A stretch of DNA of 60,192 nucleotides, counting the filler, from Sluysia triapertura (taxonomy: Eukaryota): the NCBI GenBank assembly GCA_046118255.1. It is 5 parts of 5 records of this genome, joined end to end, with 100 filler letters (N's around TTAATTAATTAA, not from the genome) between each part and the next. Parts side by side here need not be neighbours in the genome. Positions count along the whole stretch, not along the records: positions 1 to 13,839 come from JBJNIA010017414.1; 4 more parts are not named here. One strand, written 5' to 3'. This document shows, piece after piece, positions 1-55,429 of this stretch (position 1 is the first letter of the stretch; the number at the start of each line of letters is the position of its first letter). Made by a program: the position numbers and the translations under genes. Under the pieces are notes generated by a model. That model ran no database searches, had not been told where the DNA came from, and was given only the letters and a program-made list of their open reading frames with translations.

Positions 1-10
1 TGAAACATAA

Positions 11-46
11 AGTCGGGTCATTTGACCCGCTATGGTAGAAATAGGT
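11..46. mobile_element. Probable piggyBac-type DNA transposon terminal inverted repeat (right end)
   Basis: Palindromic CGGGTCATTTGACCCG followed by CTATGGTAGAAATAGG resembles piggyBac/Looper-type TIRs; the canonical TTAA TSD is not intact. Confidence 0.35.
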
Positions 47-515
47 ATATATTAAGTCTTGGTATGATTAGTGTTAATAAAATACGTACATTAAATCAAT
101 TAAATTATCAAATCCAAGTGTTAAAAATCAATAATATATATTGTTGTTTGTATGTGTTACTAATAATAGATATAATAATAATATATGTCAATATGTACAA
201 TCAAATCATAATATTACATATAAAACAACAAATCACATAATCAACAATGTATATTCGGCAAATCAACAAATCATTACAATTCCCCTGACTAATAAAATTA
301 GTCTCTAATTTTCTAATGTTATTCAGTTGCTCAAAAATGAGTTATTACAATCAAAATACTGATTTTCCAATAAATCTTCGCCCAATGCACCAAATTCGCT
401 GTCGCTGACATCCAAGTCGACTGTGCTATATTTGCTATAGCTGGCATTTAGGTCGACGTTTGATGATCGTGGATGGATCTTTTATGCTAGCTTCTGTTGA
501 CCTAGTGTTGGTTTA

Positions 516-598
516 TGTTGACTTGGTTGTGCTAACATCTGTTGACTTGGTTGTGCTAACATCTGTTGACTTGGTTGTGCTAACATCTGTTGACTTGG
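516..598. repeat. 24-bp tandem repeat, about 3.5 copies
   Basis: TGTTGACTTGGTTGTGCTAACATC repeated; reads TTKSTDVS in one minus frame, just past the 580..963 ORF. Confidence 0.9.
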
Positions 599-963
599 TG
601 AAGCCTCTTTCGCTTCCGCTGTTCACTTCTTGTTGATATATCTTGATTTTTATGTATATTTTTATATCTGATTGGAGTTGCGAAATTGAATATATTACAT
701 GTGTTATCTGTGCAGCATTTGGTGTGTGTTAGATTATGTATAGAAGAAAAAGAAGAAGGAATAAGAGATTTTTTAATTGAGGGATCTTTTAATTCATTAT
801 TAATAATCTGTGGTAAGAATGTTGTATCCCTTTCACAAAGAATATCGAACAAAGAAACCAAGTCTTTTACCTGCTGCTCGCATGTAGAAGTACGCGGTGG
901 AAAAGGGTAAATAAGTGTTAGAACCAGCGACCTACTTACAAGATTTAAAGAACTAAATGGCAC
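580..963 (-). CDS. Hypothetical ORF, probably a decayed accessory gene 3' of the gypsy element
   Basis: 127-aa ORF with a basic KRKR patch, same strand as the element; no family recognised. Confidence 0.3.
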   Translation of the reverse strand: MPFSSLNLVSRSLVLTLIYPFPPRTSTCEQQVKDLVSLFDILCERDTTFLPQIINNELKDPSIKKSLIPSSFSSIHNLTHTKCCTDNTCNIFNFATPIRYKNIHKNQDISTRSEQRKRKRLHQVNRC

Positions 964-2068
964 TATATTAGTTCATGTGAGGTTGATTATACTCGCAACC
1001 AGCCTTACGGTATTGGAAAAGTTATTATAATTATATCAGGAAAAAATGTGACCAATATTTTATTATATAATGAAGCGGGCCAAAATTGCCTAATATCTGA
1101 AATATCCTTCGCATTCTTCAAATCCTGTTCACGCAACCATGGTCCACTGTTAAAAAATTCTTAATTCTATTCCTAGGACAAATCAATGAGTCCGAATGGA
1201 AAGACTTCTGATAGTAAGTAAAACAAGCCCATATAATTTGATGTTTATCATTAAAATCAAGAGCCAATTATGCCACCAAAAATACAAGATTGGTGTGTGT
1301 GTGTGTGAAGGTCGCACGTTCCTCACATTTATACAAATTATCTACGTCTGATTCATACAAAAGTGGATATTTGGTTGTATTTAGTGGAATCACTTGTACA
1401 AGATGTGTGATATACAAGAAGAGAAACTTTGAAGTCTTACTTGTAGAGGAATCTGATTTTGATATTTCCCTTAGCTGCCGTTATTATGACTTGTTTGTTA
1501 TCAGTAGGGAAACCGAATACTGAATTAACAATTAAAGGGGTTTTTATATGTCCGATGAAAAATAAGTGTGTGATGAAAGGTTCATCAATTTCACACTTCA
1601 AAATGTTTGGAATGTCATTGGATTTTGTAGACAAAAGACGTAACATTCCTACCACAGAAACGATCGATCCTGTTTTAAAACGCATGTGTATTGTTTATAA
1701 TTTTTGCTTGCGGGTGTCTTAATAAAAGAACACATTTAAAAGAAAAGACAAGATTTATAAATGGTAAATTAATCGTTAGTTTATTTTTTATATTATTTTC
1801 TATTTAATTATAATAACCTACGTATTTTAGGAATAATAAAAAATTAGATATGATTTTTCTTAAGAAATAGTTCCACTATCTTATTCTTTTTTTATAAACC
1901 TCCTTTTTATAGAGACATCTATTATGCTTCTGGGATTTTGATAACCCAGAAGGATAATTAGGATGTGGTATACTTATCAAATGTTCATTATTTTGCTGCT
2001 TAATTTATTATGGTTGTGTTATTACAATCTATTGAATTTCAATACTTTGGGATTTACTGGGATTTTTT

Positions 2069-2266
2069 CTAAAATATAAGAATGTCTAAAAAAACTTGAA
2101 TTTCTTCTACAGAAGTTCTGCACAATGAGCAGTTCATATATTCCGTAAATGAAAAATGAAAGAGATTAATTATACATTTGAAATGAAATTTATGCGAACA
2201 GGGGTATATTTTCGTATAGTGCTTATTATAGAACGTTGGAAAATGGAACATCGAGTGAAATACATT
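2069..2266 (-). pseudogene. Small RING-H2 finger protein (frameshifted)
   Basis: YPCSHKFHFKC...CSLCR matches CxHxxHxxC...CxxC; the first Cys pair appears degraded in an upstream frame (MYFTRCSIS). Confidence 0.7.
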
Positions 2267-2479
2267 GCTGAATTTTAAGAAAATAAAAATATAATAAGAT
2301 ACTAGTATTTTAAAATTAATTAAGTGGTTAGTTTAAATACTGCAGTTATGATCCTAATTATGTATATGGCTAAAATCTACGAAAAGTGATTAACAATAAT
2401 TTTTTAAATTTAGGTGACCGGTTGGACAGAAAACAACCGTCAACATCGATCACTCGTAATTTTTATATATAGTTCAATG

Positions 2480-3120
2480 TTACACTTTGATTATAAGTGT
2501 CAATTTTCGCAGTGTCCCTAAATATATTTTTATGGCGTCAGTCATAAGATTTACTGTAAGCAAAGCATAAAGATTGAACGTAACAATGCAAAGATAAATG
2601 TTGATTTCAAATGTTAATTTTTGGTCATTATTGTGTTTTGAAAATTTAAGGTTAAAGCCGATTTTAGTAAATTTATTTGGTATTTTAGTTGTTATTTCAA
2701 TGTATGGTCGTGCAAGTGACCAATTGTTTATACTTATTGTTTCGTTAGTAAAAATTATTCATATGTATATAGTTTGAAATGTTAACTTAGGTTGATAGCT
2801 TAATCTAATTGTTTGTTTATGTGGTATTAATTCAAGAATTGTTTCTCTCTAAGTCCCATATTTTATTACAATCGAATTATTTGATAGTAGATTGGTTATT
2901 TTAATTAGGTAAAGTTCATTGATTAATGCTGTTATAGACCAATTCATCCATTTTTTATTAAAACCATCAAAGAATAAATAAGGTTTGGTCTGTATCCAAT
3001 GATTCATTAATTCCATGGTTATTTTCACTTTGTATAATTGAGATTCAAATAAGTCTTCACAGGTTATGATCCAATACAGAAGTAGTACACCAATTATTTG
3101 AACATCTAATGGATAAACTA
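2480..3120 (-). pseudogene. About 210-codon frame with two in-frame stops; putative membrane or secreted glycoprotein
   Basis: Manual translation VYPLDVQIIGVLLLYWIITCE...INIYLCIVTFNLYALLTVNL...; hydrophobic ends and N-x-S/T sequons; missed by the ORF track. Confidence 0.45.
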
Positions 3121-3151
3121 ATTAATTTCTTATTTATTTCCTTAGCAATGA

Positions 3152-3830
3152 CTAATATCTCGTCTGTTTTAGCTTGGATAAATAATTGTATATCTTTATA
3201 GAACATTTTCTTAGCTTATTCGTTGTTATTTTAAGTGAATATGTAGTGGTTAAGCAAATGCATAGTAATATTGATGACATTTGTATTCCACTGTAATGTG
3301 TCGGTAATCTTAAATCCTTATTGTATTCATATAATGGTGATGGAATTATTGGTGGTAATGGTGGTCCTGAATGAGCAGAAAATCCATTAATTCTTGGAAT
3401 GGAATAATGATAATCATCGTCGTTATTGGAATAGGAATTGGTAGGAGTGCATTTATTCATAATAAATATCAAAATCATCAGTAAGGTTATGATTAATGCA
3501 ATAATAAACAGTGTTGCAGCAATTATTAAAATAGTTATCGAAGGATCTCTTTTTAATGTATATACAATCGTAGATTCCTTATTTCCTTGTATTGCAAAAT
3601 GGAGTTGTTTAATAATTTTAGCTTGATTTTTTATAAATTTTGCTGTCTTCAGAAAGTAAATATTCCTTACAAATTGTTACAGGATATTCTGTATTAGGTA
3701 TAACATGTTTATGTATTTCCCATATACTAAAATTAAGTCTTGCTGGATTAATACAGATACAATGCTCTTTAATGTTAATTTTCGTCATTTTTATTTGTAT
3801 TTCCGTATCAAAATTGTAGAAGTCAAATAT
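3152..3830 (-). pseudogene. Single-pass membrane protein with Tyr/Pro-rich cytoplasmic tail
   Basis: TM ILIIAATLFIIALIITLLMILIFIM followed by DDDYHYSIP...GPPLPPIIPSPLYEY; Cys-containing upstream part in a shifted frame. Confidence 0.5.
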
Positions 3831-3877
3831 TTTGATCTATAAACTCGTTGATGCCTCTTTAATTGAAATCAGTGTTA

Positions 3878-4482
3878 TTAAAGTAAGTAACAACATGTTT
3901 TGCGGCATATTATTAACTCTAATAAATAATTAATAGCATATATTGTAGTAAATATTAAAAGTGCTATTATAAAAGCATGTTGTATGTCCAATTTATTTAT
4001 CCTTAGATTATCTAATTTATTATTGCTCAATTTAGTAGTAATATTGGTTATTTTATTTATTACAGTTGTTGATGGTATGGTCGTTGTTTTATTTATTGAG
4101 ATATATTGTTTATTATTATTAAATATATCCATTAAATTTATAGCTATTGATTTATTATAAAATGAAAATTTTATTGTATATAATAATAATAAATTGAATG
4201 TTCACATTTAAATATATTATCTATGATTGAAGGTTTCTTTATTGATAATGGTTTAAAATATATACAATATATATCTAAATTATAATTAGGAACTTCATTT
4301 CTATTATCAATTTCAAGTGTCCAAAATCGATTAAAAGTATTTGATAAGAACGTGTCTTGTTTAGTATCAGTATATTCTGTTAAATTTGATGGATAAGATG
4401 TTGCCATTGTTATAAATTGAATAAGTAATAATATACAAGTTATGTAAAGAAATTTATTACTTTGGATTCCTCTTATAAGCAT
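3878..4482 (-). pseudogene. Type I membrane glycoprotein split over two ORFs
   Basis: Signal-peptide-like FLYITCILLLIQFITMA (4171..4482); Thr/Asn-rich stalk, TM AFIIALLIFTTIYAINYLL and Cys-rich tail CRKTCC (3878..4132). Confidence 0.5.
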
Positions 4483-4690
4483 TATACTACTTCTGTGACT
4501 ACTATCATTATCATGTTTCTACTCCAGATGAAGTTGAAAATATTGTAGAATCCCACTAATCAAGATTTTTCCAATTTGGAGTTGGCCTTTGTGAATTTAA
4601 CGGAGAAATTTGATAGTTTTGCTGTGCTGGTAATGGTGGCATTGTTCTTTTTAATGGTGGTAATACTATTGGTGACAAAACTATATGTGC

Positions 4691-4985
4691 TCATAATGGT
4701 ATCTTAAGAAATCCTAATCTACCATGAACTACAAAGTTTTCCAGTTTACTTGATGCCTCCATTCCTATTATAACTTCATAAAGGCATCTGTCCCATGTCA
4801 ATATTGTTACAAATAAGTCTACATCTAAATTTGTTAACTGACATTGTATGATTTCAATGTATGAATTCAATATTTGAACCATTTATAATAATCGTATACC
4901 AGCTTGTTGTAACAGTAATGTATTATAATTAATAATAGTATTATTTGATCCAGTGTCTATAACAGATATTACCGTTGATTAAATT
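4691..4985 (-). pseudogene. Retropepsin-like aspartic protease located downstream of integrase
   Basis: VISVIDTGSNNTII (catalytic DTG at about 4950-4958), then after a frameshift YEVIIGME (ILG-type motif). Confidence 0.7.
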
Positions 4986-5129
4986 TAATACTTTGCACTA
5001 AATGATTTTGTTAACATATTTGTTATATTTACTGGTTTAATATTTGTCGTTCTTAGTGGTTTATCTGTTACTAATTTAAATGATGTGCTTATTGATTTAG
5101 GTGGTTTATCTCTATCTTTAATTCTTGGT

Positions 5130-6300
5130 TTTACCTTTAAAACACTTCTTAACTTTTATATCTCTTAAATTATATTCATTATTTGGTGTTACCTTACAAA
5201 GATTCGCATGTACAACAAAAGTTTCAGCATCCATATCATTTGGTTTTCTAATATATAAATTAGTAGAAGTCGTTTTCATTACTTCATTTGGTCCTTTAAA
5301 TGGTTTATGTAATTTTTGAGATTATCCTGGTTTTGCTAATGGATAATCTACTAAAACCTTATCTCCTATTTTGAATTTATCGTGATTCGCCATTTTGTCT
5401 TATGTCTTTATAAGTTTCCTGAGTATAACGTATTTGCAATCAGGCACGCTTCCATGCATCATAGTGGTGACATTCTGGGTTTCTAAATATTGAGATGACG
5501 GTGGAATCCAATCTAGATTCAGTGGCATATTTGAATGTCTTCCATACATTAAAATGGCGTAAAATTCGTAGCAGTATGTACTGAACTTATATGTGCAAAT
5601 AAGCATGGTGCTATATATAAATCCCAATCTTTTTGCTTTTCGTTTACATACGACTGAAGTGAATTTATTAATGTTCTATTATATCTTTCCCCTAATCCAT
5701 CTGTTTGTGGATGGTATGGAGATGTGCATATCTTTGTAACTGATTTTATCGCGACGCTTGTAAAATTAGTTCGTTGATCAGTTAATAGCTTTCTTGGAGT
5801 TCCGTATCTATATATTATTTTCTACTAAAATTTGCGCCACTGTTTCTGCTTTCTGATTTGCTATTGGATAAGTTACTGTCCATTTTGTTAAATAATCAGC
5901 AAATACTATTATATATCTATTTCCATCTATAGTTTCTGGTAGTGGTCCCATAATATCCATAATATTCCATTGGTGAAAGTGGTATAGGCATATGTTGTAG
6001 TGGTACTTTTGTTTTAGTTCCTGTATTTTTTCTACAACCTATAGCACAATCTTTACACCACTTGTTAATATCTTTTTTCATGTCCCAATAATATTTATTT
6101 TTAATTTATGATAACGCCTTTCTTGTTGATAGGTGTTTTCCCAATTGACCATCATGATATTGAATGAATAATGGGATTATTAAAGATTTTGGTACAATCG
6201 TTTTCCACTCATCCTTTGAATCTCTAAACGCAAAATACCATCTGTTATTAAAAACGTTTTAGCTTTATCCTCATTTAACAATCCTTTTGCTATTTCTTCA
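5130..6300 (-). pseudogene. pol: Ty3/gypsy integrase, degenerate
   Basis: HHCC region (YHDGQLGKH...WCKDC), MDIMGPLPETIDGNRYIIVFADYLTKW, LLTDQ, SPYHPQTDG, FKIGDKVLV...KGP (GPY/F-like). Confidence 0.92.
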
Positions 6301-6342: not shown

Positions 6343-7155
6343 TTATTTTAATTCTTCTAGTTTTCCTGAAATTACCATTATTTGTATAAGATTCCCCTTT
6401 TCATCTGTATTTGTTAATATATTATTTATATATATTATTTGCAAATCAAATTCCGCTAGCTTTGTGAACCATCTGTTTAATCTACTTACTTCATCCCTAT
6501 TATTATACAGATATGTTAACGGTTTGTGATCAGTATACAGAAACACTTTTTGTCCTAATATATAGTGTCTGAATAGTTTACATGCATATACTATTGCTAA
6601 ACATTCTTTTTCAATTGTTGAATAATTTATGTCGGTTTTATTTAATCTTCTGCTTGCATATGCTATTACTCTTTCTAGATTTTCTTTATTTCTTTATTCT
6701 AGAATTGCTCATATCGAACATTACCAGCACCCGTTTTATTATAAACGGTTATTCTCATCTGGGAACATTAATATTGGTGCAGTTGTTAATTTTTTCGTTA
6801 ATTTTATAAAAGCTTTTGTTTGTTCTTCGGTGCATTTAAATACTACATTTTTCTGAGTTAACATTCTTAAAGGTCGAGCAAAATCTTTTAAAATCTTCTA
6901 TAATAGCTTGCCAATTTTAAGAAGCTTTGAAATTTCTTTACACTATCTGGCGGTGGAAACTTTACGACTTTCTATATTTTTAGGATTCGGTTTTATACCT
7001 TTATGTGAAACTATATCACCTAAAAATTCCGCTTGTTCTTCTGCCCATACACATTTAGTAGGTTTAATTTTCAATCTAGCTACTTCTAACCTTTAGAATG
7101 TTTTATCACTATCTACTGCATGAGTATCAAAATCTTCTGAAAATATTACTATGTT
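6343..7155 (-). pseudogene. pol: Ty3/gypsy RT C-terminus and RNase H, degenerate; protease and RT N-terminus deleted in this copy
   Basis: IVIFSEDFDTH, LKIKPTKC, EFLG, LTTAPILMFPD, EKECLAIV, YTDHKPL, RLNRW. Confidence 0.92.
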
Positions 7156-7351
7156 CCTTACTTAAAATTGCTAATATCCATTTTGAACGCTTAATTTAAA
7201 TTCATTTATTCATTTAAATTTTCATTTAATTTTTTAGCATTCGTTATACCATTTGCCATATCTAATAAAAATTACACAACTTTTTGATCAGTTTCTCTAA
7301 TTGTTGTTTCTGGGGTATTTATTCTTTCATTAGCTGATATTATTATTATTA

Positions 7352-7939: not shown

Positions 7940-8499
7940 TAATCCAGTAATATAAAAAATTCTCTAAGTATTGCATTCTTTTCCTTGTCAGTAATTAACT
8001 TAAGATATTTATCATCTTCATCGCTGCTGATTTTTCTTCTTGGTTCTCTTTTCTTATTTCTCTTCTCTTCATACTGATATTCGTCTTCACCCTCATATTC
8101 ATTCCTGTTATTTCTATAATTATCATCTCTTTGATTTCTATATTTACAATTTATTTGTCCCTTATTACTTTTATTATTATCATCATTAAACCTTACTTTC
8201 CAATTAGGGCATTGGTATCTTTGTTGTTGTTGAACCCTTACTCTAGTAAAGTCTTGAGTAAACACATTTTTGCCTTAATTTTCTACAATCTCTTGCGTAA
8301 TGTCCTTTTTTGTTACAGTTGTCACAAATTATTTCTCCATCTATATTAGTTTGAGTCTTATTATTGTTCTCGAATCTCATCGGACTTTTATTTCTGTTCT
8401 TATTAAAATTAAAAGTAGGTGGCCATCTCGGTGCTGGTCTTTGCTCATAATTAGATATACCATAATTACTTGCTCTGTTATTTTGAAATTCTCTGCTTA

Positions 8500-8551
<52 letters not shown>

Positions 8552-9261
8552 TCCTCTATAATTATTTGAATTCCCCCTATAACTATTTTAAATGCCTCTG
8601 TAATTATTGCTTCGATTACTATATCCATCATAAGAGTTATTTCGGTTATAATTTGAAGAATTATTATTGTATCATAATTTGAGGAATTATACATATATCT
8701 AATATAATTATCAAAATTATCTTTATTTCTTTTGAATTTTGTCATTATTATCACTTAAATAAGTAATAAGTAATATTATCTCTATCATCAGTATAAGACC
8801 TTTCTTTCCATTAATGTAACGTATGTCCTTAATTCCGGACTTTTACGAGCGCATGCGAATTCATATACAGTTTCATTTGGTTTTTGTTTTCTTACATTTA
8901 ATTTCTTTGTATAATATTTTGTCATGTCATCGAGGGCTATCTCCTCGGTAAAAGCATTTACAAATGCATTCCAAGATTGTTTATCATTATTACTTGTTTC
9001 CTTATAAGTTTGAAATGTTACTCCAGTTAAGTAGTTTTGTATTCTCTGAATTTTTTCAATTTCGTTCCAGCCGTTTGTTTCGGCAATACTTTCATATTCA
9101 AAAAGAAAATCACAGAGGTCTTTCTCTGCTTCGTTAAATTTTCTCATTTCTGGTAAAGTTAATATGGGACGTATGCCTTTTGCTAATTGAGCCATATATT
9201 CTCTGAAATCATTAAGTAATGCCATATAATTTCTTAATTTTGCTCTATAATCGTCGTACAA
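7940..9261 (-). pseudogene. gag: Ty3/gypsy gag with CCHC zinc knuckle
   Basis: FEYESIAETNGWNEIEK...RKQKPNETVYEF retrotransposon gag motif; CDNCNKKGHYARDC knuckle at about 8285-8326. Confidence 0.88.
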
Positions 9262-9576
9262 TACAATTTGCTTATCTATTTTTTACTTAAAACTTAAAGT
9301 ATAATTTACTTAGGGTACAATAATTTACTGAAATATAACTTATTCTTAAACTTAATATTAGGGTCAATGAAATTATGATAATGTTTTACTTTTAATTAAT
9401 TAATTAATTTTATAATAATTCTTAATTATTCTTATTAACTATCTCATAATTTTTTATATGCTAATTCTCACATTCTTAAGTGCTTAAAACTCTTATTTGA
9501 AATTTATTAATTATTGTATGCTTCTCATCACTATTTATATTATCTATATTAATCTTATATATTCTTCTGATGCTGG

Positions 9577-9594
9577 TCCTCACTCTGGGCACTA
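9577..9594 (-). promoter_or_regulatory. Primer-binding site, elongator tRNA-Met-like
   Basis: Minus strand TAGTGCCCAGAGTGAGGA resembles TGGTGCCCCGTGTGAGGA (complement of the elongator tRNA-Met 3' end); lies upstream of gag. Confidence 0.6.
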
Positions 9595-9875
9595 ATTTAT
9601 TTTATTTTTGCTCACGAATAAAGATGTGGATGTGTGTTAGTTAACCAACGTATCCAGACTTATCACTTAATAATTTAAATGTATCTAAATTGCGTTGATT
9701 CTTTAAAATAAATCAATTATTAATTCGACAATATATATTACAAAACAAATGGTATTTTTACAAATAATGATATTAACTAAAAAGATAACAATACTTTACA
9801 AATAATGATAGTGACGTTGCAGTATTAACTTTAAAGTTAATATAAAAATGATTTTAAATTATATATTGTGTAACA
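9595..9875 (-). mobile_element. Candidate 5' LTR of the gypsy element
   Basis: Abuts the PBS; TGTTAC start on minus at 9875; no second copy seen in the window. Confidence 0.3.
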
Positions 9876-10560
9876 ACCTTGAAAATGGTTACGAAATTAT
9901 GTATAAAATAATTTGCGTATATTTTACATAATACCTAATAAAGGTATAAAAACTTAGTATAATCAAACTAACGATTCCGTTTGAGAAAATTATTCAAATA
10001 AAAAAACTGATCTTAATCGATTGAATGGATGTTAGGTTGTGAGTTTTAACTTTTTATTTTGTATTAGGTATTTAGTGTATTAGGTATTTATATTATTTTT
10101 ACCATTAACCTTGAATTATTTGCTTTAATGATTAATTTAAACAAAAATAATTAATAATGTTACTATTTTAACAAAACATTTAATCATTACAATTAACATT
10201 TTGACTTGCGAATACGTAAAAGTACTTATAAATCAATTATAGATTGACAAACTTGAGAAATAGATAATTCAAATAATATTACAACACAGGGAAGGTTGAA
10301 CTTTGGTTACACATTAATGGTAAATCAATTAATTATTGAAATCACTTTTTTTTCATTTTCACATTCGACAAAACCAATAGAATTCAAAATAAAAGATAGT
10401 AATTGTATAAAATTAGTCGAAAATAGCTTATCGTGTATAACAATGAACAAAATTACTAAAGAAATATTGACATAATGGTTCAGACAGCATGCATCTTAAA
10501 TAAAACTCATCATAATGGAACAAACTGAGAGAATGCCTTCTTTTTTGTTTCTTCTAGTTA

Positions 10561-11257
10561 CACTAGAACACGTTCAATGTTCCGGTTTTGGAAGTGTGTT
10601 GTTCCAGTTTCAAAAAGAAGTTAGTTAGTTAAAATAAAAGATTTGCAAAATCAAACAAGTATATTTTGTTAACTGTATGTACATAATTCCACATATTTAT
10701 TGAAAATTATATAATAAATACATTTCACACAAAGAAACATTCTCTAAACTGAATAACAGTGATCTTATACGCTTTTAATTATTGACTGCTTAACTAAATT
10801 TTATTAATATTTAATTTTGCAGGTGGTTGGTGTTATAACTAAATAAAATCTTTATTCATCTATTGTACTGGCTTATTTCAGTTCATCAGTGCAATATATC
10901 TTATGTTTCTGTTTTCTTTTATTCATCTAATATGATATTATTGTCAGTGTCTTTATCTAATTTTTCTAAAATTTCTCGTTTCACATTTAGTGTTAAATTG
11001 ATTTTATTTCGTTTTGAATTTGATGCCCCATTACGTGAGTATTCAAAGTATTAAGTTAGGTACTAAAATACTGTGTCAAACAAAATCTGCAAAGTAAAAT
11101 AAATAAACACAATAATGAATAAAATGGTGGTCAATAATATTTAAACAAAACACAATTATTTATTCTTCTAAAATTATAATAAAAATAATATTACAAGCAT
11201 GTTCCAGTTTTAGAAGTTATTCTGGTTTCAGTACGTCCAGTTTTTGGACTTCTAGCG
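10561..11257 (-). mobile_element. Non-autonomous pogo/Tigger (Tc1-mariner) element
   Basis: TA|CACTAGAA...TTCTAGCG|TA ends, subterminal TTCCAGTTT repeats, internal minus remnant KRNKINLTLNVKREILEKLDK (CENP-B/psq-type HTH). Confidence 0.65.
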
Positions 11258-12819
11258 TATTAATTTTAATATCTGATTATGTGGTTTTAAACGATTATCA
11301 ATTTTAAAATTAATTGTGATTTTAAATAGTATTTGTTTTGATTTTGACAAATTGACGAAATATTTTTCATTTGTACTGATTGAGATATATTTTTTCTCAA
11401 TATTTTATTTACTGACAATAATGAGTATTTAATCTTTTTTAAAAATAGTAATCACCGTAAATACATAATCAAGTTTCCGATGCAATTGTGCCATTTCTTT
11501 TTTATATTATAAATCTGAGCAAATCATATTCAAAATCAATGTTAAAATCAATAATGTATTTACATAAACTATAGAAACACAATTAAACCGAAATTAAAAA
11601 ATAACATTAGTCAAATTTAAAACGAATATTTTCATTATTTTATTTATTGATTTTTTCAGCTCGTGGCATTATGATATTCATTGGTTTAAGTGTGCTGGTT
11701 TTCATAGTCAGTTTGGTATCGTTTTATATATTAAATTGATTTTTTGTTTTATTATATTGTTCACGTCATTAAATTAATTTGAAAAATGACTTTGATTATA
11801 ACGGTTAATGGTTTGATTATTATTATCATTATTATTATGATTATTATTATCACTATTATTATTATTAATTATTATCACTATTATCATTATGATTATGATT
11901 ATCATTATAAAGCAATAATTTTGTCGTATTTTAAACATTATTTCAACTTTTTCATTAATTGCTTATTTTAAAAAGAAGAGGGCATACAGAAATTCCATCA
12001 TATCCATTTCTTGAATAATAAACTACTGAATAACCTTGATTATTATATTGGTTAGAAATTATACGAAAAGTAAGTTCAATTGAAATCAAAACTAAATAGT
12101 TTCTTAATTATATAGATGTATTGTACACATTTTGATAATATGCATTCTACTAAATTATAAACACTTTGAGGTTTTATTTTTTTCTGCTTTTCTGTTGTCG
12201 GATAGATCCATAATTTTCAAAATATTCAAAATCTTGATTGATTGATGATGCTGCCACATTGCGGAAAATTTAAAAGCGTCTGTCTCATTTTCATTACATT
12301 AGTTTTCTATTATTTCTGATTTTTAGAAGTTTGTATCACATTTTCGCACTTTTCTCGAAATTCAAATATTGCTCGTTCTATTTTCAAATTATTTCCATTA
12401 ACTTTTATTTGTAATGTTTGGTTATACAGTTACCACAGTAAACAAATGAAGATTTTAGTGGATGCATTAGTAATAGAACTACAAAACATTTAATTGTGGT
12501 GAATCCACTTCTAATTCTGCCAAGATAAATGTTAATTGGTTTAAAGCTGTAATTGGATGAATTTGATTGAACCAAGTCCATGGGTTATTTCGGTAGATAT
12601 ATAATATTTAAAACATTAATATTAAATTCTAAAATGCCTCCAAATGGTAGAATAAAATGTATATTGTATATAATACTGAGTTAGTGAATGTTAATGTTAT
12701 TGGTGGAGATATCGATGTTGTAATTTTCGTTTTGTTAATAGAGAAATTATGTAAAATATATTAATTAAATATCAATATTATTTTCAATTAATTAATCATA
12801 ATTTGTAAATGATTTTGGG

Positions 12820-12952
12820 AATAATAATATATATTGAATTGCTCTACGATTTACTCTAAAATAAGTACTCAAAAGCGCTTAAAATGAATCATTCATCGTA
12901 TAGCTGACATAGAAAGAACTTTGCCTTTTTCTTATATATTTCATAATCTTAC
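12820..12952 (+). repeat. Dispersed repeat, second copy at about 16945-17072
   Basis: AAGTACTCAAAAGCGCTTAAAAT...GAAAGAACTTTGCCTTTTTCTTA..TATTTCATAATCTT shared. Confidence 0.85.
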
Positions 12953-13458
12953 AATATATCTTATTTGTATAAGTTATAAGATATGAAGAAAAAACTTCTG
13001 AAAATATAAAAGTACATTTATTAATTTAATTAAGAATTGTTTTAATTTAATAATTTTTTGTGCGTGAGAAAATAGCATATGAACTGAAGAGTAATTTTGA
13101 AATATTACGAAATTATTTTAATTAATTTTCTGTAATATGAAGCTAAATTTATATATCTTGTAATGTTCAAGCATAATAAACGTATATTTTAAATTAATCA
13201 TCACTAATGTACCGAATCAGGCAGGTTATTGAAATGCACGTACGGATAACGCATGACGTATAGTATCGAACACCATTGTGGAAAATAAGTTGTATTTAAT
13301 TGATTTTATGTTTAATTCTATTACCGAATTTATTTTTAAATTTATTATTCTTTTATACCTTTTACATTTCCTATTAAATTATTATTATCAATATTATTAT
13401 TATTAAACTTTTTATGAATACAAATGAATTTTTTAAGAAAAAATGAATAATCTAAAAC

Positions 13459-13530
13459 TGTTAGACTTCAATAAATAGACTGACCGGGAATCTAGCGCAG
13501 GACCTCTCGCTTCAGTTCGATGCTCAGTCA
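13459..13530 (-). mobile_element. Degenerate 3' half of the tRNA-containing TG...CA element
   Basis: Reverse complement GAGCATCGAACTGAAGCGAGAGGTCC...CCCGGTCAGTCTATTTATTGAAGTCTAACA. Confidence 0.7.
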
Positions 13531-13839
13531 ATTATATGTTGAGTAGTCTTTTAAAATATTATTTAAATTAAATAGATATTAATTTAATTAACTACCAAAA
13601 TAAGTCAATTGTTTATGTACTCCCTATCTGATAATAATTATTATTCTTCCTAAAATTAAATGTTTTATAAAGAAAACCAGATTAAAATCAAAAACAAAAT
13701 AATTTACTAATTAAACAAATATCAATTACAGATTCATATTATTACAAATTTCTATCAGATTTTACTAAAAATGATTAAATCGATTATAAATTAATATTAA
13801 CACAAATTAATGATTAAAACAATTACAACTTAACGTTAT

Positions 13840-13939
13840 NNNNNNNNNNNNNNNNNNNNNNNNNNNNNNNNNNNNNNNNNNNNTTAATTAATTAANNNNN
13901 NNNNNNNNNNNNNNNNNNNNNNNNNNNNNNNNNNNNNNN
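13840..13939. other. Artificial contig spacer
   Basis: N44-TTAATTAATTAA-N44, a six-frame stop linker. Confidence 0.97.
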
Positions 13940-14049
13940 CTCACTAAGGCAACACGATGCTCTACCACTGAGCTATCAGCCCCATCTAACAATTTTTGGA
14001 TTAGAATAGTCAACCATACAAAGTGGCGCCTTAGGCCTATGCTCAATCA
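13940..14049 (-). mobile_element. 5' half of the tRNA-containing TG...CA element, truncated by the spacer
   Basis: Reverse complement AGGCCTAAGGCGCC...AATTGTTAGATGGGGCTGATAGCTCAGTGGTAGAGCATCG. Confidence 0.8.
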
Positions 14050-22900: not shown

Positions 22901-24738
22901 CTGAATTGGACTGCAATGTAAACAAAAATAGATTTAAAAGCAAAGAAGAAGAGTGTGCATGGAAATTTTAAAATGGGTTTTGTTTGTCCAATTGAATTTG
23001 TAAAAAATAGAAAAAAATTCTAAAATTTATATCTGTTAGCGTCCAGAACCTTAGTTTTTCCTCGTTTACTCACTTTTAATTCAAACTTGGTTGCGGTTAA
23101 CGATCTCATATGGACTCTTAAATGGTATAAATTCTTCAGTACTCACAGAATCAAAATTTAACATGTTACACCTGACGCTTTTCAACAAAAAATTGTATAA
23201 CTGACTCAGCTTTTTGGTTGTTTGTTGGAAAATCCTCGGACCATTTAGTTTGATAATCTGAGACTACCAATACACGTAATAGGTAGCACATCAATATTAT
23301 CTGTGACTGCAATTTCTGCAAAACTTGTATAGACTGTAAGAAAACTGTAGTTTTTATTACCTTTTTCTTATGAGATGAACAAATTTGATATAATTTATAA
23401 CTTCCTTTATCAATATTTCATTCATTCTTATGTTTTCTTTGCTGAACATAAGGAATTTTCTTACCTTAAGAAATATAATAATGTACTTATGCTTTATGTT
23501 TATCCCTATCAACGATAGCATTAAAAAATACATTAAAGAGTTAATTTCCAAAAAAATAGTTTTCGAAAAAAGAAAATAAAGTTTACTAAAACAGAAACCG
23601 AAAATTATAGAACGTTCTAAAAGTTTCCTCAATTATGATTGGCTGATGGCTGGTATAAATATTGGCATCGGTACAATTATGAACACAATAATAATATTTA
23701 ATGTTTTAAAAAAATTTTCTTTTTAAGTTACAAATTTAGTGACTTTATTTAAGAAGTTTTCAAAATTAATACTTTTGAAGATTTTGGATAATCATTACAT
23801 TTCAGAAAATTTTTCACTAATTATTAATATATTTTCTAATGACGGTTATAATTCTAGAATTTTAAAATGCAAGCAAAATATTTTATAATTGAATTTTATA
23901 GCCCAAATTTAATGGGGACAATTTCATTTTTGAAATCAAGAAAATTAAAAATTAAAGACCTTCAAAGATCTTTGCTTTTATTTTTTGTTGTAATTATTTA
24001 AAGGTTCTAAAATTGTATCATAAATTTTAAAATAGTTGTAAATAAAAATAAAAAAATTATTAATCAAGGAAATATCAAATTATTTTATAAATAAAACTTA
24101 GGCCCTCTATTAAGTAATTGCAAAAACAAGTAAAAGTTGCTACAAGAATTCAGCTTCACAAGTTAAGAAAGAGAATACGATATTAAGATTAAAATTCACG
24201 TTAATTAGCATTTTAGTTACAGATACGCCCACTCTAAGTCATAAATCAGAGCACTGTATTCACCTTGAAGGTTAAGTACGATAAAATATTTGGAAATATC
24301 TAATACGAGATAAGAGATATTCATCTTGATTTAATTTTCGAAAATCAATACAAAATCTCATCAATCTGTCATTTTTATTAACCAATAAATATGCAGTCTA
24401 TATGTTCTTACGATTTAAGTTTAACTGGATTCGGGTGTGATGTATTTAATAAGAGTTGATTCAGCAATATCATATCTCACGCTAATACTCTAGGATATTT
24501 TTTTCTTGTTCAGTAATATTGTTATTATCGATTTTAACTTCAATGAATGCTTTTGATTCTGTTTCTCATTTCAATAAAAATTTACAAATATTCTTCGTAA
24601 ACATTCTTTATGTTTCCTTAATTTTATTGCATCGTGGTGGCAATTGCAAATGCGCAAATAAATGCATCTTCTTTCATATTATTCATGATATGAAAATAGC
24701 ACATCTTTCACAAATTAATGTCTCTTCTCCAAAATACG

Positions 24739-24838: not shown

Positions 24839-25065
24839 TGTTTAATAGTTCGTGTATATGTGGAGTGTTTTTATGCGATGAATTGTGATGAATTTTATGT
24901 GATGAATTCCCTACAAAAGTAATTCACAATCACTCAATAATTAAAAAAGTTAGTTTTAAAGTTGCAATTACTCTGAATACATTGGAATTCCTACTGATTA
25001 ACAAGTAACTTATGATAAATATTGAAATTTACTGTCTACAACTTTTGATTTTAAATAAAAATTAA

Positions 25066-25672
25066 CACTATGAAAAGTGCTGGAGTAATACAACCAAGTT
25101 TTTCTCCATTTTCGTCACCAGTATTACTAGTAAAAAAAGAACGACGACACGATGCGATTATATATAGATTTCAGAGAATTGAATAAGATAACACGAAAGG
25201 ATGTATTCCCACTACCGCGAATAGACGAGATGTTAGACAAATTAGGGAACGCTACGCATTTTACAACCTTAGACTTACAAAGCGGATAATGGCACATTGA
25301 AATAGCAGAAAAAGATAAACACAAAACAGCTTTTACGTGCGGAAGCGAACTATACGAATGCGAAAAGATGACCTTTGGTCTAACTGGCGTACCGGCAACG
25401 TTCCAACGTTATATGAATTTTGTACTATCAGGATGTAAGAATGTCATTGTATACATAGATGACATTACAATATTTTCAAAGGATTTTAAGACAATATTTT
25501 AAAATGATTAGAAGTTGCAAGACTTAAGATAAAGCCTACAAAATTTGTATGGGCAGAAGAAAAGTCGAATTTTTAGGACACATAGTATCTAAGGATGGTA
25601 TTAAAATTAATCCAAGAAACATCGATAAAGTAGTCAAAGTTCCACAACCAGATAACGTTAAAAAGATTAAAA
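25066..25672 (+). pseudogene. pol: Ty3/gypsy reverse transcriptase fragment, same family as 50.6-51.3 kb
   Basis: MKSAGVIQPSFSPFSSPVLLVKK, DFRELNK, FPLPRIDEMLDKLG, FTTLDLQSG, FGLTGVPATFQR, VYIDDI, VEFLGHIV. Confidence 0.93.
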
Positions 25673-37012: not shown

Positions 37013-37735
37013 ATCAAATGTAGAAGACTTTAAAGAATTTATTAGATCTCCTTATCTTTTTCGCTATTTCTTTTCATTTCATTTCGTATCTTAAATTTTA
37101 TCTCAGAATATAAAGATTAGAAAGAAGAAGCTCGTGTAAAAAGATATAAAGACATTTATGTACTTTTATTTTTATTCATCATTATTATTATTCTTATTAT
37201 CACTTTCCATCATATTATTATTATAATTATTATTCATTAGTATTACTGTTACTATTGACGGCCATTTAATTATCATGTGATGTAATAATTATGACTAGGC
37301 ACAATATCAGTATAACCTATTAGTTAATTTTAGTCATCAATTATTAATCAGTCATCAATTATCATTAATCTCTCTACCAAACGTCACCCAATCAGAATAC
37401 AGCATTACAAAATATTAATCACTTACTTTTCAATGATCCGGTTGGCTAGACAAAAATAAACAGCCAACTACCAAAAAATCTCAAATTTTTGTATGTGTAA
37501 TTATTGGCAAACGGTGGAGAACAAAAAATTGTTAGTAGTCAAAAAAGAGAACTATATTTCATACACAAAAATACAGCTAATAAAAAACAGTCATTATATT
37601 ACACAGTACTATATAGAATAAATCAATAGCAGCCATTTTAAAAAATCGGGAGAATTAATTGATTAAAAAAAGAGTGCGGAATCTTAGTGAACTGTAAAAG
37701 TATTTTAAGCAGAGTCTTTAAAGATCTATATTGCC

Positions 37736-38812
37736 ATGCAATCAGCTATTAGTGACAATTATAATGGAGTTGATGAACATGATCCTAGAGTGTTACTGTT
37801 TATTAGTAATGTAAAGCAGAGTCTAAGCGATGTTAGATATGATCCTAGAACGTTATCATTTATTAGTAATGTAAAGCAGAGTGCAAACGATGTTAGTAAT
37901 ATAAAGCAGAGTGTAAACGATGTTAGATATGATCCTAGAGTATTTTCATGTGTTAGCAATGCAAAGCAAAGTGTAGATGACAGCGAATCTGATCCTAGAA
38001 CATTATCATGTTTTATCAATATAACGCAGAGTACGAACGATGATGAATACGATTTCAGAACATTTTCACTTATTAGCAATGTCGAGCAGAATACAAATGA
38101 TGATGAATATGATCTTACCATATCATCATGTATTGGCAATAGTAAACTGGAACATCGTCATGAAGAAGATGCGAAGTTATCAAGTGGTAAGTTAACATCG
38201 AATTTCAATTGTATATTTAGTTTTTATACTCATGAACACTATTATATAATTTATTGCAGATTATTCATGCCTTATTATGATACGTCTGAACCCATGGACG
38301 GAGAAGAGCAGCTTCCAACAATTGCAGCAAAACTCTTGTCGTATATGAACGTACCTCAATTTCTAATAAATCATTGTTATAAATCTTTTAAATTTTTTTG
38401 GTTTTATAAATTTGTTTCAAATCCTAAATTATATGATAATTTAATAAAAATTCTTATTAAATTAAGCAATAAAGTGACTCCGAAGGTTCTTGATTCAAGT
38501 AGAGGACAAAGGTTTAATAAATTGTTTTCTAAAATTAAATTCTACATTTATATAAATAATTTCCATAAGGAACGCGTCGAAGCGCAGATTGAAATCTCAT
38601 TTCATAAAATATCTTTTGAAAACGCAGACGCATGCGTTTCAGATCAGCTAGTAATACATAACCATTCAAGCACTTTACGTACACTACGGCCAAACTTCAA
38701 AGCTTTAAAACCTTCGAGATGCATGCGTGACAATTTTGAGTATAAAATGCATCTGTATGATTATAAGACACAATACGACAAGCCCTCACAGCTTGGTCAT
38801 CTATCAAAATAA
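37736..38812 (+). CDS. Intronless 358-aa hypothetical protein with N-terminal 20-aa tandem repeats
   Basis: Longest intact ORF in the window; about six 60-bp units (DPRTLSFISNVKQSxxDVRY). Confidence 0.6.
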   Translation: MQSAISDNYNGVDEHDPRVLLFISNVKQSLSDVRYDPRTLSFISNVKQSANDVSNIKQSVNDVRYDPRVFSCVSNAKQSVDDSESDPRTLSCFINITQSTNDDEYDFRTFSLISNVEQNTNDDEYDLTISSCIGNSKLEHRHEEDAKLSSGKLTSNFNCIFSFYTHEHYYIIYCRLFMPYYDTSEPMDGEEQLPTIAAKLLSYMNVPQFLINHCYKSFKFFWFYKFVSNPKLYDNLIKILIKLSNKVTPKVLDSSRGQRFNKLFSKIKFYIYINNFHKERVEAQIEISFHKISFENADACVSDQLVIHNHSSTLRTLRPNFKALKPSRCMRDNFEYKMHLYDYKTQYDKPSQLGHLSK

Positions 38813-50161: not shown

Positions 50162-51347
50162 TTCTTTTTCATTTGTTGAATAATTCAATTCAGCTTTGTT
50201 TAATTTTCTACTTGGATATGCTATTACTCCTAAATTTTATTTATTTCTTTGTCCCAGGATTGCTCCTATGGCAAAATTGCTAGCATCTGGTGTTCGTATA
50301 AACGGTTTTCTCAGATCTGGGAACATTAATATTGTTGCGGTTGTTAATCTTTTCTTTAATTCAATAAATGCTTTTGTTTGTTTTTCTGTCCATTTAAATG
50401 TTACATTTTTCTGTGTTAACATTTTTTTTGCAAAATATTTTACAAATCTTTTATAATAATTTGCCAATCCTAAAATACTTTAAACTTTCTTTACATTATC
50501 TGGTGGTGGAAATTTTACAACTTTTTCTATATTTTGGTTTTATACCTTGAAGTGAAACTATATGACCTAAAAACTCGACTTGTTCTTCTGCCCATACACA
50601 TTTTTAATGTGCTGTCTATATCAGCTACATGAGTATCGAAATCTTTTGAAAATATATAATATCATCAATGTAAACCATAACATTTTTACAACCGGATAAT
50701 ACAAAGTTCATACATCTCTGGATTGTTACCGGTGCAGCTGTTAATCCAAACGGCATATTTTCGCATTCGTATAATTCATCTCCACATGAGAAAACTGTTT
50801 TGTGTTTATCCTTTTCAGCTATTTCTATTTGCCAATAACCACTCTTGTGATCTAATGTAGTAAAATATTTAGCATTTCCTAATTTATCCAACATTTCATC
50901 AATTTTTGGTAATGGAAACACATATTTTGTTATTTTATTTAATTCTCTAAAATCAATACAAAATCTCATCGTTCCATCTTTTTTCTTAACTAATAGCACT
51001 GGTGATGAGAGTGGAGAAAAGCTTGGTCTAATAACTCCAGCCTTTTTCATTGTATCTATTTGATCTTTCATTTCTTGTTGATTGCACAATGGAATTCTAT
51101 ATGGCTTCTTTCTAATTACTTTGTCTTCTATTAGCGGAATTTCATGTTTTATTATAACAGAATCGCCAATATCGTATTTGTTTCTTGTAATTACCGAAGG
51201 ATATCTATAAATAACTTTGTATAACGTTTCTTTATGTTGTTTAGTTAAGTTCTTATTCTTTATTTGTATTTCTTCATAATCTTCTTCATCTTCGATCTTT
51301 CTTTGTAATTTAATATTTTTATTCTTTGGTCTATCATTTGACACCAT
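50162..51347 (-). pseudogene. pol: Ty3/gypsy reverse transcriptase and start of RNase H
   Basis: KPYRIP, SPVLLVKKKDGTMRFCIDFRELN, MPFGL, VYIDDII, DASNFAIGAILGQ. Confidence 0.96.
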
Positions 51348-51578
51348 GTTTATTTGTGATTGTAATTTGTAATTAAATATTTCTTCTAGTTTTGTACCTG
51401 CATATAACCATTTATTTTCAACGTACCTATAATTTATTATTCTTATAGGTACGTTTCCATCTTGAATTCTACAAATTGAATCAGCGATACCTATATTTAA
51501 TTTTTCTTGATTATTTTTCGTAGCTCTAAAGATTATTGGACCATTTCTTAGACTGTTAGTTTTTCCTGGTATTATTCA

Positions 51579-51965
51579 TTATGTTCTCTTAAGTAACCAA
51601 CGTGGTTCTTCTAATATAACATCATCATCATCTATTGGTCTATCAGTATACGTATCCATTAACTTTGATTTACTAAAATCTAACGAGACTCTTTTTAATT
51701 GTGAGAGTACATCAATGCCTAATATCTTATCTTCTGGAAATTTTCTCATTACTCTACATTTTATTTTGATTTTATTTTGTCCAATTTCGCATAATATTTT
51801 TAATTCTCCTAATATTTCGATTTCATCTCCATTTACTCCTGTCAGATATGAATGCCGTTTCGCTAAATTGTTTAATTCTTTAGTTGTTAATAATGATTCA
51901 CTTATTAAGGAGGCGACTGCTCCTGTATCAATTAATGCAGATAACATTCTTCCATTAACTCTCAT
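51579..51965 (-). pseudogene. pol: Retrotransposon aspartic protease
   Basis: ALIDTGAVASLI...ILGIDVL. Confidence 0.93.
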
Positions 51966-52099
51966 GCCACTGTGGGTCTTCTTGCACTATTATAATTATT
52001 ATTCGTACATATCATGTAAACTAAATTTCTTGGAGGATATAACACTTGTTTCTCTTCATTAATTGGTTCAATATCTATTGTTTGTAATGCTATTTCTTC

Positions 52100-53810
52100 A
52101 GTTTGTTTTTCTCTCCTTTTTTAAAGCTTTTAATAGAGCATGAGCGTGACTATGTAATAGAAATTCAGCTAAAAATTGGGAACAACCAATTATTAACTTC
52201 CAAGTAAAACCTGATATTTTATAAATACCTATTACTGAAAATATTTGAGATATTATAAGAGCGATAACTTTAATTATTACATATATACCTATGTTCGCTT
52301 TCTAGCTTGAAACAATTATGAAAAATTACTTTTAAAATGGGATAAATACTTTTAAAATGGGATAAATACTTTTAAAATGGGATAAATAACTAATTTTAAA
52401 TGGGATTTTAGTGATGAGTTTGACCAAAGATTAATTCTTGGGTTGTAAATTAAGTTGATTTTGAGTAATATTTTGAGGCAACGCATTTATGCCAAATTCT
52501 TATTATGAATAAGCTTACTTATAATTAGTAAAAATCGCCGACAGATAAATGATCCGAGTATTGTTTCCAAAAATGTGACTTAAATTCAAAAATGAAATTA
52601 TCTGACGAGCAAATTTGTGGATTTCTCAAAATTATATATAACGATCGGACTCGTGAATTCCAAAATTGTAGATTATTAGTAAATCATCCAAACTAGTTTT
52701 CACACTGTCTCAAAGAATTTCACTATTAGCTTTATTATTGTGCGTTACAATTCTTTTTATACTTGGTTCCAAGAATGACATAAATAAGCTTATTCGAATG
52801 AAAATATAAATAATTTTTAATGTTTACAATTTTGACTAATATGAATAATTGAAATTAAATTTTGATAGACAATTAATTTCATAAATATTTACATTAATAA
52901 TTTGGTATAAATGTAAAAAGATCATTTTTTAAAGTTTAATTTACAAATTTTAATGATTTATGAAATTTTCAAATAATAATAAAACTTTTTAATATTTACA
53001 AAATTTTTTCTACAATATTTATACAGTGTTTTTACAAAAATTTAATAATTACAAGATTTTTAAATAAAATTTTAATATTTACAATTTGTACATTTCATAT
53101 ATTAGTTATAGATAGTGTTTACACTATTAAACCAGAAAAGGCTTGACTTATAACTAAGAAATTTCCCCAAATTTGCTTTAAAGTACTCTGTGCTGCTTTT
53201 TTAAAATGATCAGGTCCTAATAATAATTCAAAATTTATTTTATCATCTTTTTCCACTATTGCTTTGTCAACTATATCTGTAAGTACTTTAGATCTTTTAA
53301 TAGGAAATAAAATTTCATGCCAAACTGCTTGTGTATCTTCATTAGAATAGATTCCTGAACTTGGAATATTTTTTGTAGCTGAAAATTTTAATTTCGTTTT
53401 TAATTATGTTAAACCAATGATTTCCGGAGTTTTAACTTGACTTCGATGTAGTAATGATATCCAAAGATATTCGGGAGCCATCACATTAGAGAAGTGTAAA
53501 GTTTATTAGTTGGCATAATAATTCTAGTGACTGGTTCTAAATAAGTATTTTGATTTTTATATATTACTGGTAATTCGTTAATACATTCATTTTCTTGCCT
53601 TATTTGTACTTCTACTTTTCTACATTTGTATGAGTATAAAACTTCGCCCATTAGCCTACCAAATACTCCTTCTAATGGAAGTAATGATGCTACTAAATCT
53701 GGGTTAGTTATTGCTACAGCTAATTTAGTTCTTAATATTTCTTTATTGAGTTGGCAATCCCTGGCTATCATAGTTTGATAAGCTTTTTCTAATGACATTA
53801 GTATTATAAT
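52100..53810 (-). pseudogene. env: Chuvirus-G/herpes-gB-like (class III) envelope glycoprotein C-terminal half, split by an insertion
   Basis: GEVLYSYKCRKVEVQIRQENECINELPVIYKNQNTYLEPVTRII, SSGIYS, QIWGNFLVISQAFSGLI|GIYVIIKVIALIISQIFSVIGIYKISGFTWKLIIGC membrane region. Confidence 0.75.
52292..53123. mobile_element. 832-bp TGT...ACA insertion (solo-LTR-like) inside env
   Basis: CTA(T) duplicated at both junctions; removal restores FSGLIGIYV; contains a 20-bp tandem repeat TACTTTTAAAATGGGATAAA. Confidence 0.75.
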
Positions 53811-55429
53811 AAAGAGATAAATTATAAAAGATTAAATTCTGTAGTTATAAAAGTTAAAATCAGTAGTTATTCATTCATTTTTACACCAGTTTTAATGCTG
53901 TGGTTAAACTCATTATATATATTCAAGATACAAGGAAACAGATTCGATTACATAAAAATGTGTCTATATTTATCTATTTTCACACTGGTTTAAATACGAT
54001 GATAAATTTACCATTTACAATCCTACTTAATACGAGATTAAAATAAAATCCATATATAATACGAAGATAAAGAATTATCGAGTTTCACTAAATTTAAAAG
54101 GAAGTTATAAGATAATCTTCATTGTTAGAAATTCAATTCTTTAACAGCACTGCGCATTATTCAAGCGATAATTATTTGTATAGTTAATAGCACCTCCACA
54201 TCTTTATCTGATTATTATCTAAACCCTCTGATCAAAGGTGAACTCACTAATCTATATTTATAATTTATAATTGTAAGTTAGCAGTGTTAAGGAGAACCAC
54301 ATCATACCAAATTTCTTTTCTTTAAAATGTTTTGATGCAATACGTCATGCGTTAACCTTACGTTACACGTCGATTTGGTGTTTATCTGAATTGGTATCTT
54401 AGTGCCAAACCATATAACATATACAACATATATAAATGTGGTGGCCAGCACGATTTCAGAAGGTTTTTTGATCCATAACATACTTTTACACAACATACAA
54501 ACCACACATTACATCTAAAATTATATTTTAAAATTCACAAAAAAGAAAAAGCAAAAGAAAATGAATATTCCACAAGACATCTTCAATTTCACTAAACTTC
54601 TTTCATTACCCTCTTTTCTACTTATTTTTACCTCTCATCACATTAAAATTTACCAAATTTATACTCTAAAATTCTGAAAATAAAACGAAATGAAATTTCT
54701 ATTACATACCCTCAATTCTATTAACTTTATGTTACAACTCTTCCTTTTACTCATTTTAACTTCTCCTCTTATCTAACTGTTTCTATCTATAACAATAATA
54801 TGGATTTTATTCAACAAGTCCCATCTAACAAAAAAGCACGAAGATCTTATAATATTAATCCATATACAGATCAATCGTTATACAACACCACAACTTTCAC
54901 AATCTTCTCTACAACATTCATTATCGTTGATTATATCTCGAAATCCAGCATCTGTTATTATTAATAATTCAATCTGTCAAGTGCCAAATGCACAGAATAT
55001 CAACAATTATGAGCATTTAAAGACACATCCGCTACAATTACTTTCACAACACCAGCAACAGCGATTTTAGTTCAAGAACCTAGCTAACAAGAAATAGTCA
55101 TTATATTCATCGATATATTAACATGCAAAAAAAGACGTAAATCAAAAGAACAAGCTTAAGAAGAAACAACAGATAAAGAATTAATCCTGAAGGTAGCACA
55201 AACATCGACCTTAATAAGTTGTACGGACAAAAAAACTTACGTATCAACTCCACGAACTTCTCAAATACCTGTAAATAATGATAATAAATTAGTGCAATGT
55301 ATTAAGTTGCAACTTTTGTATCAATAGCTATTTATGTACGCTACTAAAATTAGTATATTTTAATCTTGTGTAGATAAGACTGGCTTTTACTATGAACCGA
55401 TATTAAATAATTTCAAGATTATTTTAGGA

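Follow-up and report, generated by a model that had tools for sequence, protein, structure and literature searches.

A putative, degraded post-integrase retropepsin in a gypsy-like element of Sluysia triapertura and the multi-protease gag-env-pol polyproteins of its relatives

By the textbook rule, LTR retroelements and retroviruses carry one protease per pol. A stretch of 60,192 nucleotides (filler included) of the Sluysia triapertura genome (GenBank assembly GCA_046118255.1), hereafter the window, raises the question of whether this holds for all gypsy-like elements: a protease-like domain was noticed after the integrase (IN) of one element copy, and a canonical protease before the reverse transcriptase (RT) of another. 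A preliminary description of the window proposed a polyprotein with two proteases, the second perhaps acting on env, accessory or host substrates.

The window is AT-rich (20-31% GC) and crowded with decayed repeats. One gypsy-like element (copy 1) lies on its minus strand at 9.3-3.1 kb, and parts of a second copy (copy 2) were distinguished on the same strand (Table 1). Minus-strand translation of copy 1 confirmed the integrase tail (KFKIGD..GPNEV..HANLC, 5390-5200), Lys/Thr-rich linker, VIDTGS...VIIGM domain and Pro-rich tail described earlier. Copy 1 has no env, no canonical protease and no first half of RT, and its tblastn alignment with the related protein P0018 stops at residue 144 and resumes at residue 1714, a position just within the YIDD motif. 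The integrase and the post-integrase domain (PR-c) are in different frames, with a break near 5150-5170, and the PR-c frame carries five stops (4987, 4981, 4885, 4693 and 4558). Copy 1 is dead and non-autonomous, and no LTR pair was found around it between 1-3300 and 9201-14000. The first of two accessory membrane proteins is composed of a signal-like hydrophobic stretch (4452), a Thr-rich stalk and a predicted transmembrane helix (3970), in the same order as in the relatives described below, whose ectodomains give no sequence match; the second has a signal-like start, a predicted transmembrane helix (3511) and a Pro-rich tail. The downstream ORFs of the relatives have no match in the window. 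A Y-x-L-R-[S/P/C] motif, which we take to resemble the chromatin-binding motif of foamy-virus Gag, follows the integrase in the window (5174, minus strand) and, by pattern, in 11 of the 12 relatives; it recurs after PR-c in P0012, P0013 and P0014.

In copy 2 the canonical protease (PR-b) was confirmed before RT, 92 codons past the env end motif GFTWKL, and the RT sequence is indeed common to both copies (Table 1); the segment splitting its env is unrelated sequence. A combined protease profile detected no extra protease between env and PR-b in copy 2, nor in the gag-RT gap of copy 1, and no one copy here combines two proteases. Elsewhere the window contains additional pieces of RT and integrase from the clade of this element (25058-25671, plus strand; 24302-24397 and 23178-23387, minus strand), an open frame of 367 codons that contains 60/90-nt tandem repeats and matches no Pfam family (37709-38812, plus strand), and runs of ~100 nt near 13840, 24735, 36910 and 47955, which match one another and are probably scaffold gaps (the 24.7 kb run reads N).

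Table 1. Coordinates of the element features distinguished in the window
Feature	Coordinates	Strand	Basis and remarks
Copy 1, gag capsid-like region	8788..9282	-	ORF; weak Retrotrans_gag match, E 0.076; tblastn with P0018 residues 42-144, E 3e-14
Copy 1, CCHC zinc knuckle	8285..8326	-	read in translation
Copy 1, inferred internal deletion (approximate junction)	7140..7300	-	no env or canonical protease; RT reduced to its second half
Copy 1, second half of RT and RNase H, broken	6430..7161	-	tblastn; 81% identical to copy 2 over 464 nt
Copy 1, integrase (zinc finger, core, GPY/F-like tail), frameshifted	5172..6198	-	translation, tblastn; integrase tree; YNLR motif at 5174
Copy 1, Lys/Thr-rich linker	4975..5170	-	translation, pattern scan; TNML at 5023
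Copy 1, putative post-integrase retropepsin domain (PR-c), degraded	4727..4972	-	motif, profiles, hhalign; VIDTGS at 4963, VIIGM at ~4770, stop at 4885
Copy 1, Pro-rich linker	4560..4690	-	translation
Copy 1, predicted accessory membrane protein 1, broken	3920..4452	-	hydropathy scan
Copy 1, predicted accessory membrane protein 2	3152..3908	-	ORF, hydropathy; no family found in Pfam
Copy 2, env fragment, gB/Monjiviricetes-type, upstream of the protease	52089..53864	-	split by ~830 nt (53125-52292)
Copy 2, canonical protease (PR-b)	51669..51965	-	Pfam gag-asp_proteas, E 2.7e-10; profiles; motif at 51935
Copy 2, spacer, RT and RNase H	50162..51575	-	Pfam, tblastn; stops before integrase

Across all six frames of the 60 kb window, only two motifs have the form hydrophobic-hydrophobic-D[TS]G-[ASC], those at 4963 and 51935, i.e., in PR-c of copy 1 and PR-b of copy 2. 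The profile check proposed earlier gave a divided result: the single-frame reading of the window domain has no match in Pfam, PDB sequences or 1.84 billion proteins (the latter two by phmmer), and a profile of the relatives' canonical proteases matches 4969-4732 with an E-value of 8e-5. The PR-a profile gives 0.02 and a PR-c-only profile a poor 1.6. With the combined profile the window domain reaches 29 bits; 197 of the 200 window tiles score at most 19, and the two higher-scoring tiles cover the canonical protease. Codon-shuffled controls (n=200) have a mean of 13.2 (sd 1.8, maximum 21.6). The hhalign comparison (probability 63.5%, E 6.8e-5) aligned both the DTG and the IIG motif: VIIGM, a hydrophobic-hydrophobic-Gly motif ~70 residues downstream of DTG, falls in the ILG column, and the Asp that follows this motif in the relatives is Glu in the window copy. 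The distance from HANLC is 84 codons, compared with 51-80 in six relatives. A word search of longer proteins returned none of 593 candidates, BLASTP with the canonical protease was not significant (E 0.34), and folding from the single sequence gave an unusable model (pLDDT 44). Judged from its motifs and profile matches, the window domain is a genuine though eroded retropepsin.

Relatives were sampled from two sources. An integrase-core search among proteins of 1,650-5,250 aa gave 27 hits, of which eight constitute the env clade; these closest integrases share 53-58% identity with the window integrase and sit in single gag-env-pol polyproteins of 1,800-4,000 aa with a gB/chuvirus-type (Burro-like) envelope. 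From metagenome loci the best 80 of 469 were taken, and six of them (L001-L006, assembly contigs in which no LTRs were found) belong to the env clade. Merging L003 with P0018 and L006 with P0020 left 12 distinct relatives. The integrase tail alone as a query returned none of 29 candidates, and scans of viral contigs for relatives gave no match.

The single ORF of the relatives encodes, in order: (i) gag, (ii) a hydrophobic stretch, (iii) a fusion env, (iv) a membrane helix, (v) in some cases PR-a, (vi) PR-b, RT, RNase H and IN, (vii) in some cases PR-c, and (viii) a hydrophobic stretch, an ectodomain and a membrane helix. Gag followed by pol in the order PR-RT-RH-IN is thus found in the relatives, and also in the window copies taken together. 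A Monjiviricetes-type fusion protein (Monjiviricetes_fusion) lies between gag and pol, upstream of the proteases in the same ORF, in seven of the eight protein relatives, while P0016 has no env match and appears to begin after env; in the window, env precedes the protease in copy 2 and is missing in copy 1. PR-c is present in six of the eight env-clade proteins, 51-80 residues past the integrase end, and in frame in three of the six env-clade loci among the best 80 of 469, giving 8 of the 12 distinct relatives, and D(T/S)G is kept in all eight (the window has VIDTGS). Five of the 12 carry three D(T/S)G proteases: PR-a after env, canonical PR-b and post-integrase PR-c. A multi-protease gag-env-pol architecture, with two or three proteases in one chain, is therefore real for this clade; the two-protease polyprotein first proposed stands through the intact relatives, not through any window copy, and the number two was an undercount. 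PR-c is not required, because four of the 12 relatives (P0016, P0020, L004 and L005) lack it and keep the accessory membrane protein, and two of these (L005 and P0020) are without any extra protease. Outside the env clade, the best 80 of 469 loci include 38 other gypsy loci with 400 nt or more beyond IN; a hand count found no post-integrase protease in any of them.

In three Cordylochernes gene models (P0008, P0011 and P0019) a protease motif also follows an integrase motif; they were not counted, as their pol units are repeated. Weak Pfam hits mark C2H2-like zinc fingers between PR-a and PR-b in P0013 (residues ~1290-1315) and P0015 (~1400-1500). A separate ORF downstream of the polyprotein in L001 (9043-10371) encodes an RNase_T exonuclease (E 1.5e-11); separate downstream ORFs also occur in L002-L005, and two others tested gave no RNase_T match. 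Directly after PR-c, L001 (4140-4445) and L002 (3730-4035) contain a protease-like domain with Glu-Val-Gly replacing Asp-Thr-Gly (weak profile score of 16, no Pfam hit, dN/dS ~0.17), followed by ankyrin repeats; it is possibly a pseudoprotease partner.

Several comparisons indicate that PR-c of the relatives is under purifying selection. In the L001-L002 pair, RT and IN have the lowest dN/dS (0.02-0.04), PR-c is intermediate (0.25) and two linkers are higher (0.41 and 0.75); with dS close to saturation, these values are rough. Among 15 members of the P0014 cluster (of 20), PR-c has 1.9 variable sites per 100, the linker that follows it 17.6, and none of the three DTG motifs varies. The in-frame integrase-protease fusion and the constraint on DTG, proposed earlier as checks, were both found in relatives. 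The identity of P0012 and P0013 is 73% across PR-c but drops to 47% across the linker and 41% across the ectodomain.

Pfam recognizes PR-c of L001 and L002 as gag-asp_proteas above the cut-off, and that of L003 below it. The AlphaFold model of L003 PR-c (pLDDT 91) is biased by its input alignment, in which most of the 34 proteases are canonical; by Foldseek its best matches are Ddi1 and retroviral proteases (E 4.6e-6, TM ~0.67). This relative's PR-c thus has a predicted retropepsin fold, and the absence of such a fold, named earlier as a refutation, was not observed for it. For the L003 homodimer the score is 0.38 versus 0.00 for the best control, with runs agreeing in at least 92% of contacts, a pLDDT of 80 and a predicted interface on the DTG and flap residues. 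The dimer mark is reached by 21 of 30 solved pairs and none of 23 single chains from microbes, and by 17 of 29 solved pairs and none of 30 single chains from eukaryotes. PR-c is predicted to homodimerise according to this model, whose pass may reflect memory of like dimers already solved. The predicted fold and predicted dimer interface resemble those of Ddi1 and retroviral proteases (clan AA retropepsins), from which PR-c differs in sequence (~20% identity), and these comparisons give no sign of a host Ddi1 origin.

In a first protease tree PR-a and PR-c are grouped apart from PR-b at 100/97, a separation of the proteases that weakens in a larger tree (88/94 with 16 rows, 68/78 with 18 rows); neither tree recovers PR-c by itself as a clade. 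The window domain forms a long branch, with a mean identity of 21% to PR-b and 19% to PR-c, and in the larger tree it falls weakly on the side of PR-a and PR-c. In the integrase tree the window integrase belongs to a starred clade (98/96) of 12 rows, nine of them with PR-c, and the presence of PR-c takes four changes, most simply one gain and three losses with the root assumed. The case for orthology of the window domain to PR-c is therefore made by its position and by the integrase tree.

In the relatives, hydropathy analysis shows env preceded by a signal-like stretch and terminated by a helix. A hydrophobic stretch and then a later helix follow PR-c in seven of the eight relatives that have it, and also in the window (4452 and 3970); P0015 has PR-c with no hydrophobic stretch after it, and in L001 and L002 ~600 residues, including ankyrin repeats, lie between PR-c and the stretch. 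From hydropathy only, env and the accessory protein are predicted to be type I membrane proteins. A PR-a-type extra protease is located after the env helix in seven relatives; where measured (three cases), its distance from the env end motif is 124-132 residues. All eight PR-c domains are preceded by a hydrophobic motif, 26-31 residues ahead of the PR-c Asp, that looks like a cleavage site ending the integrase; 9.8% of background windows match the pattern, which was defined after the relatives had been seen. TNML of copy 1 (5023) resembles this putative cleavage motif.

We propose that signal peptidase cuts would leave the cytosolic Pol tied to the membrane at both ends, the front tether being the env helix and the rear one the accessory signal peptide. 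PR-a and PR-c, situated at these two tethers, would dimerise between membrane-held chains and cut early, freeing Pol, and PR-b would mature the particle later. The chances that the extra proteases release Pol from membrane anchors seem to us evenly balanced; the relatives that lack PR-c or any extra protease, the missing hydrophobic stretch of P0015 and the ~600 intervening residues of L001 and L002 speak against such a role. The fuller picture is more doubtful and is offered tentatively: a clade of enveloped invertebrate retroelements with its whole genome as one membrane-threaded polyprotein, a separate retropepsin lineage at both Pol tethers, a division of labour between early release and maturation, and, in some members, a dead partner domain beside PR-c. 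The substrates first suggested are plausible in part. The env ectodomain would be out of reach, because the predicted topology puts PR-c in the cytosol, and the polyprotein's own junctions adjoining the accessory membrane protein would be the likelier target.

Alternatively, PR-c may be freed into the cytosol and cleave host proteins there, making it one of a set of cargo domains that manipulate the host. According to the accessible text of their description (PMC6431247), the cargo of Burro elements includes BIR, BCL2-like, MATH and ankyrin domains, and the ankyrin repeats after PR-c in L001 and L002, the faster evolution of PR-c relative to RT and IN, and its four gains or losses on the integrase tree are in line with such a role. 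It is nevertheless unlikely, as PR-c holds a fixed position, flanked by IN and the accessory protein, and seven relatives have a similar extra protease behind the env helix. The extra domains could also tune PR-b by pairing (PR-a with PR-c, or either with PR-b, within a chain or between tethered chains) and so set the timing of processing. A retropepsin active site takes two domains, and L001 and L002 keep the Asp-less domain beside PR-c at low dN/dS; yet the retention of D(T/S)G in every PR-c, and the occurrence of PR-c without PR-a (P0018) and of PR-a without PR-c (P0016 and L004), make this quite unlikely.

Two further explanations concern the window domain itself. It might be a canonical protease that has moved or been duplicated independently, and perhaps the sole protease of its family, as copy 1 has no protease before RT, the PR-b profile is the best match to the domain and grouping with PR-b is not rejected in the larger tree (p-AU 0.35). 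However, the gap in copy 1 extends into RT and removes half of it, as a deletion would, PR-b is normal in sister copy 2, and the position and spacing of the domain fit PR-c of the clade; moreover, the best-matching profile says little, because the relatives' canonical proteases also match all three profiles. We regard relocation as improbable. An origin of the domain as a piece of another, nested element, or as a motif arisen by chance, has a very low likelihood, in spite of the frame break after IN and the empty searches of Pfam, PDB and the protein set: IN and PR-c are in frame in eight relatives, no repeats bracket the domain, its score beats all 200 shuffles, and in run X1 17-45 differing contigs (a measure of depth, not of copy number) lie over single positions inside it. 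A nested insertion, the refutation foreseen earlier, is thus very unlikely as its origin. The window domain is best explained as a decayed retropepsin in the position that an in-frame extra protease occupies after the integrase of intact relatives, and very probably represents a true family-level post-integrase protease.

The closest layouts described previously are those of Burro/GYPSM1, giant gypsy-like elements of planarians, which share one giant ORF, an env in frame between gag and pol, a mononegavirus-like fusion env and ankyrin repeats among the cargo. In contrast, the accessible text lists one protease (PR-RT-RH-IN) and none after the integrase, and Burro, compared here by description and not by sequence, reaches 30 kb and 4,900-5,100 aa (PMC6431247). 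Of the Burro cargo/dUTPase-like domains (BIR, BCL2, MATH), Pfam found none in eight relatives, ankyrins in L001 and L002 being the only such cargo; the relatives are classed as Burro-like, short of strict Burro. Gene order and env class are also shared with the gB-type GAG-ENV-POL errantiviruses of Nematoda, Bryozoa and Platyhelminthes, and the YQESD...REC stretch in env of Smed_errantivirus_1 is, by eye, like that of P0012-P0017, but the accessible part of that report mentions neither extra proteases nor an accessory membrane protein, and its main text uses the word protease once, in a generic figure legend (PMC13524379). Canonical Metaviridae have the same Pol order (PR-RT-RH-IN) and a gag with a CCHC knuckle, but one pol protease and env downstream of the integrase (PMC7879559), whereas the clade described here has env upstream of pol and two or three proteases. 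In LTR elements of bdelloid rotifers the cargo after the integrase likewise includes membrane proteins, and DEDD exonucleases (cf. L001), but forms a separate ORF3, with no second protease named in the text available (PMC5408684). One protease is described for the Sinbad element in the accessible text (PMC554778), and the corresponding parts of PMC8532177 and PMC13238120 do not address domain layout. Within the literature searched, as accessible text with Repbase and figures outside its scope, no report of a second, additional or duplicated gypsy protease in such a layout was found.

A clade with two or three selected proteases per chain breaks the rule of one protease per pol. It makes testable how elements with an in-frame env detach their enzymes from the membrane and time their processing, and supplies new natural retropepsins for studies of specificity and dimerisation. 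Annotation pipelines may misread a post-integrase protease of this kind as a nested element.
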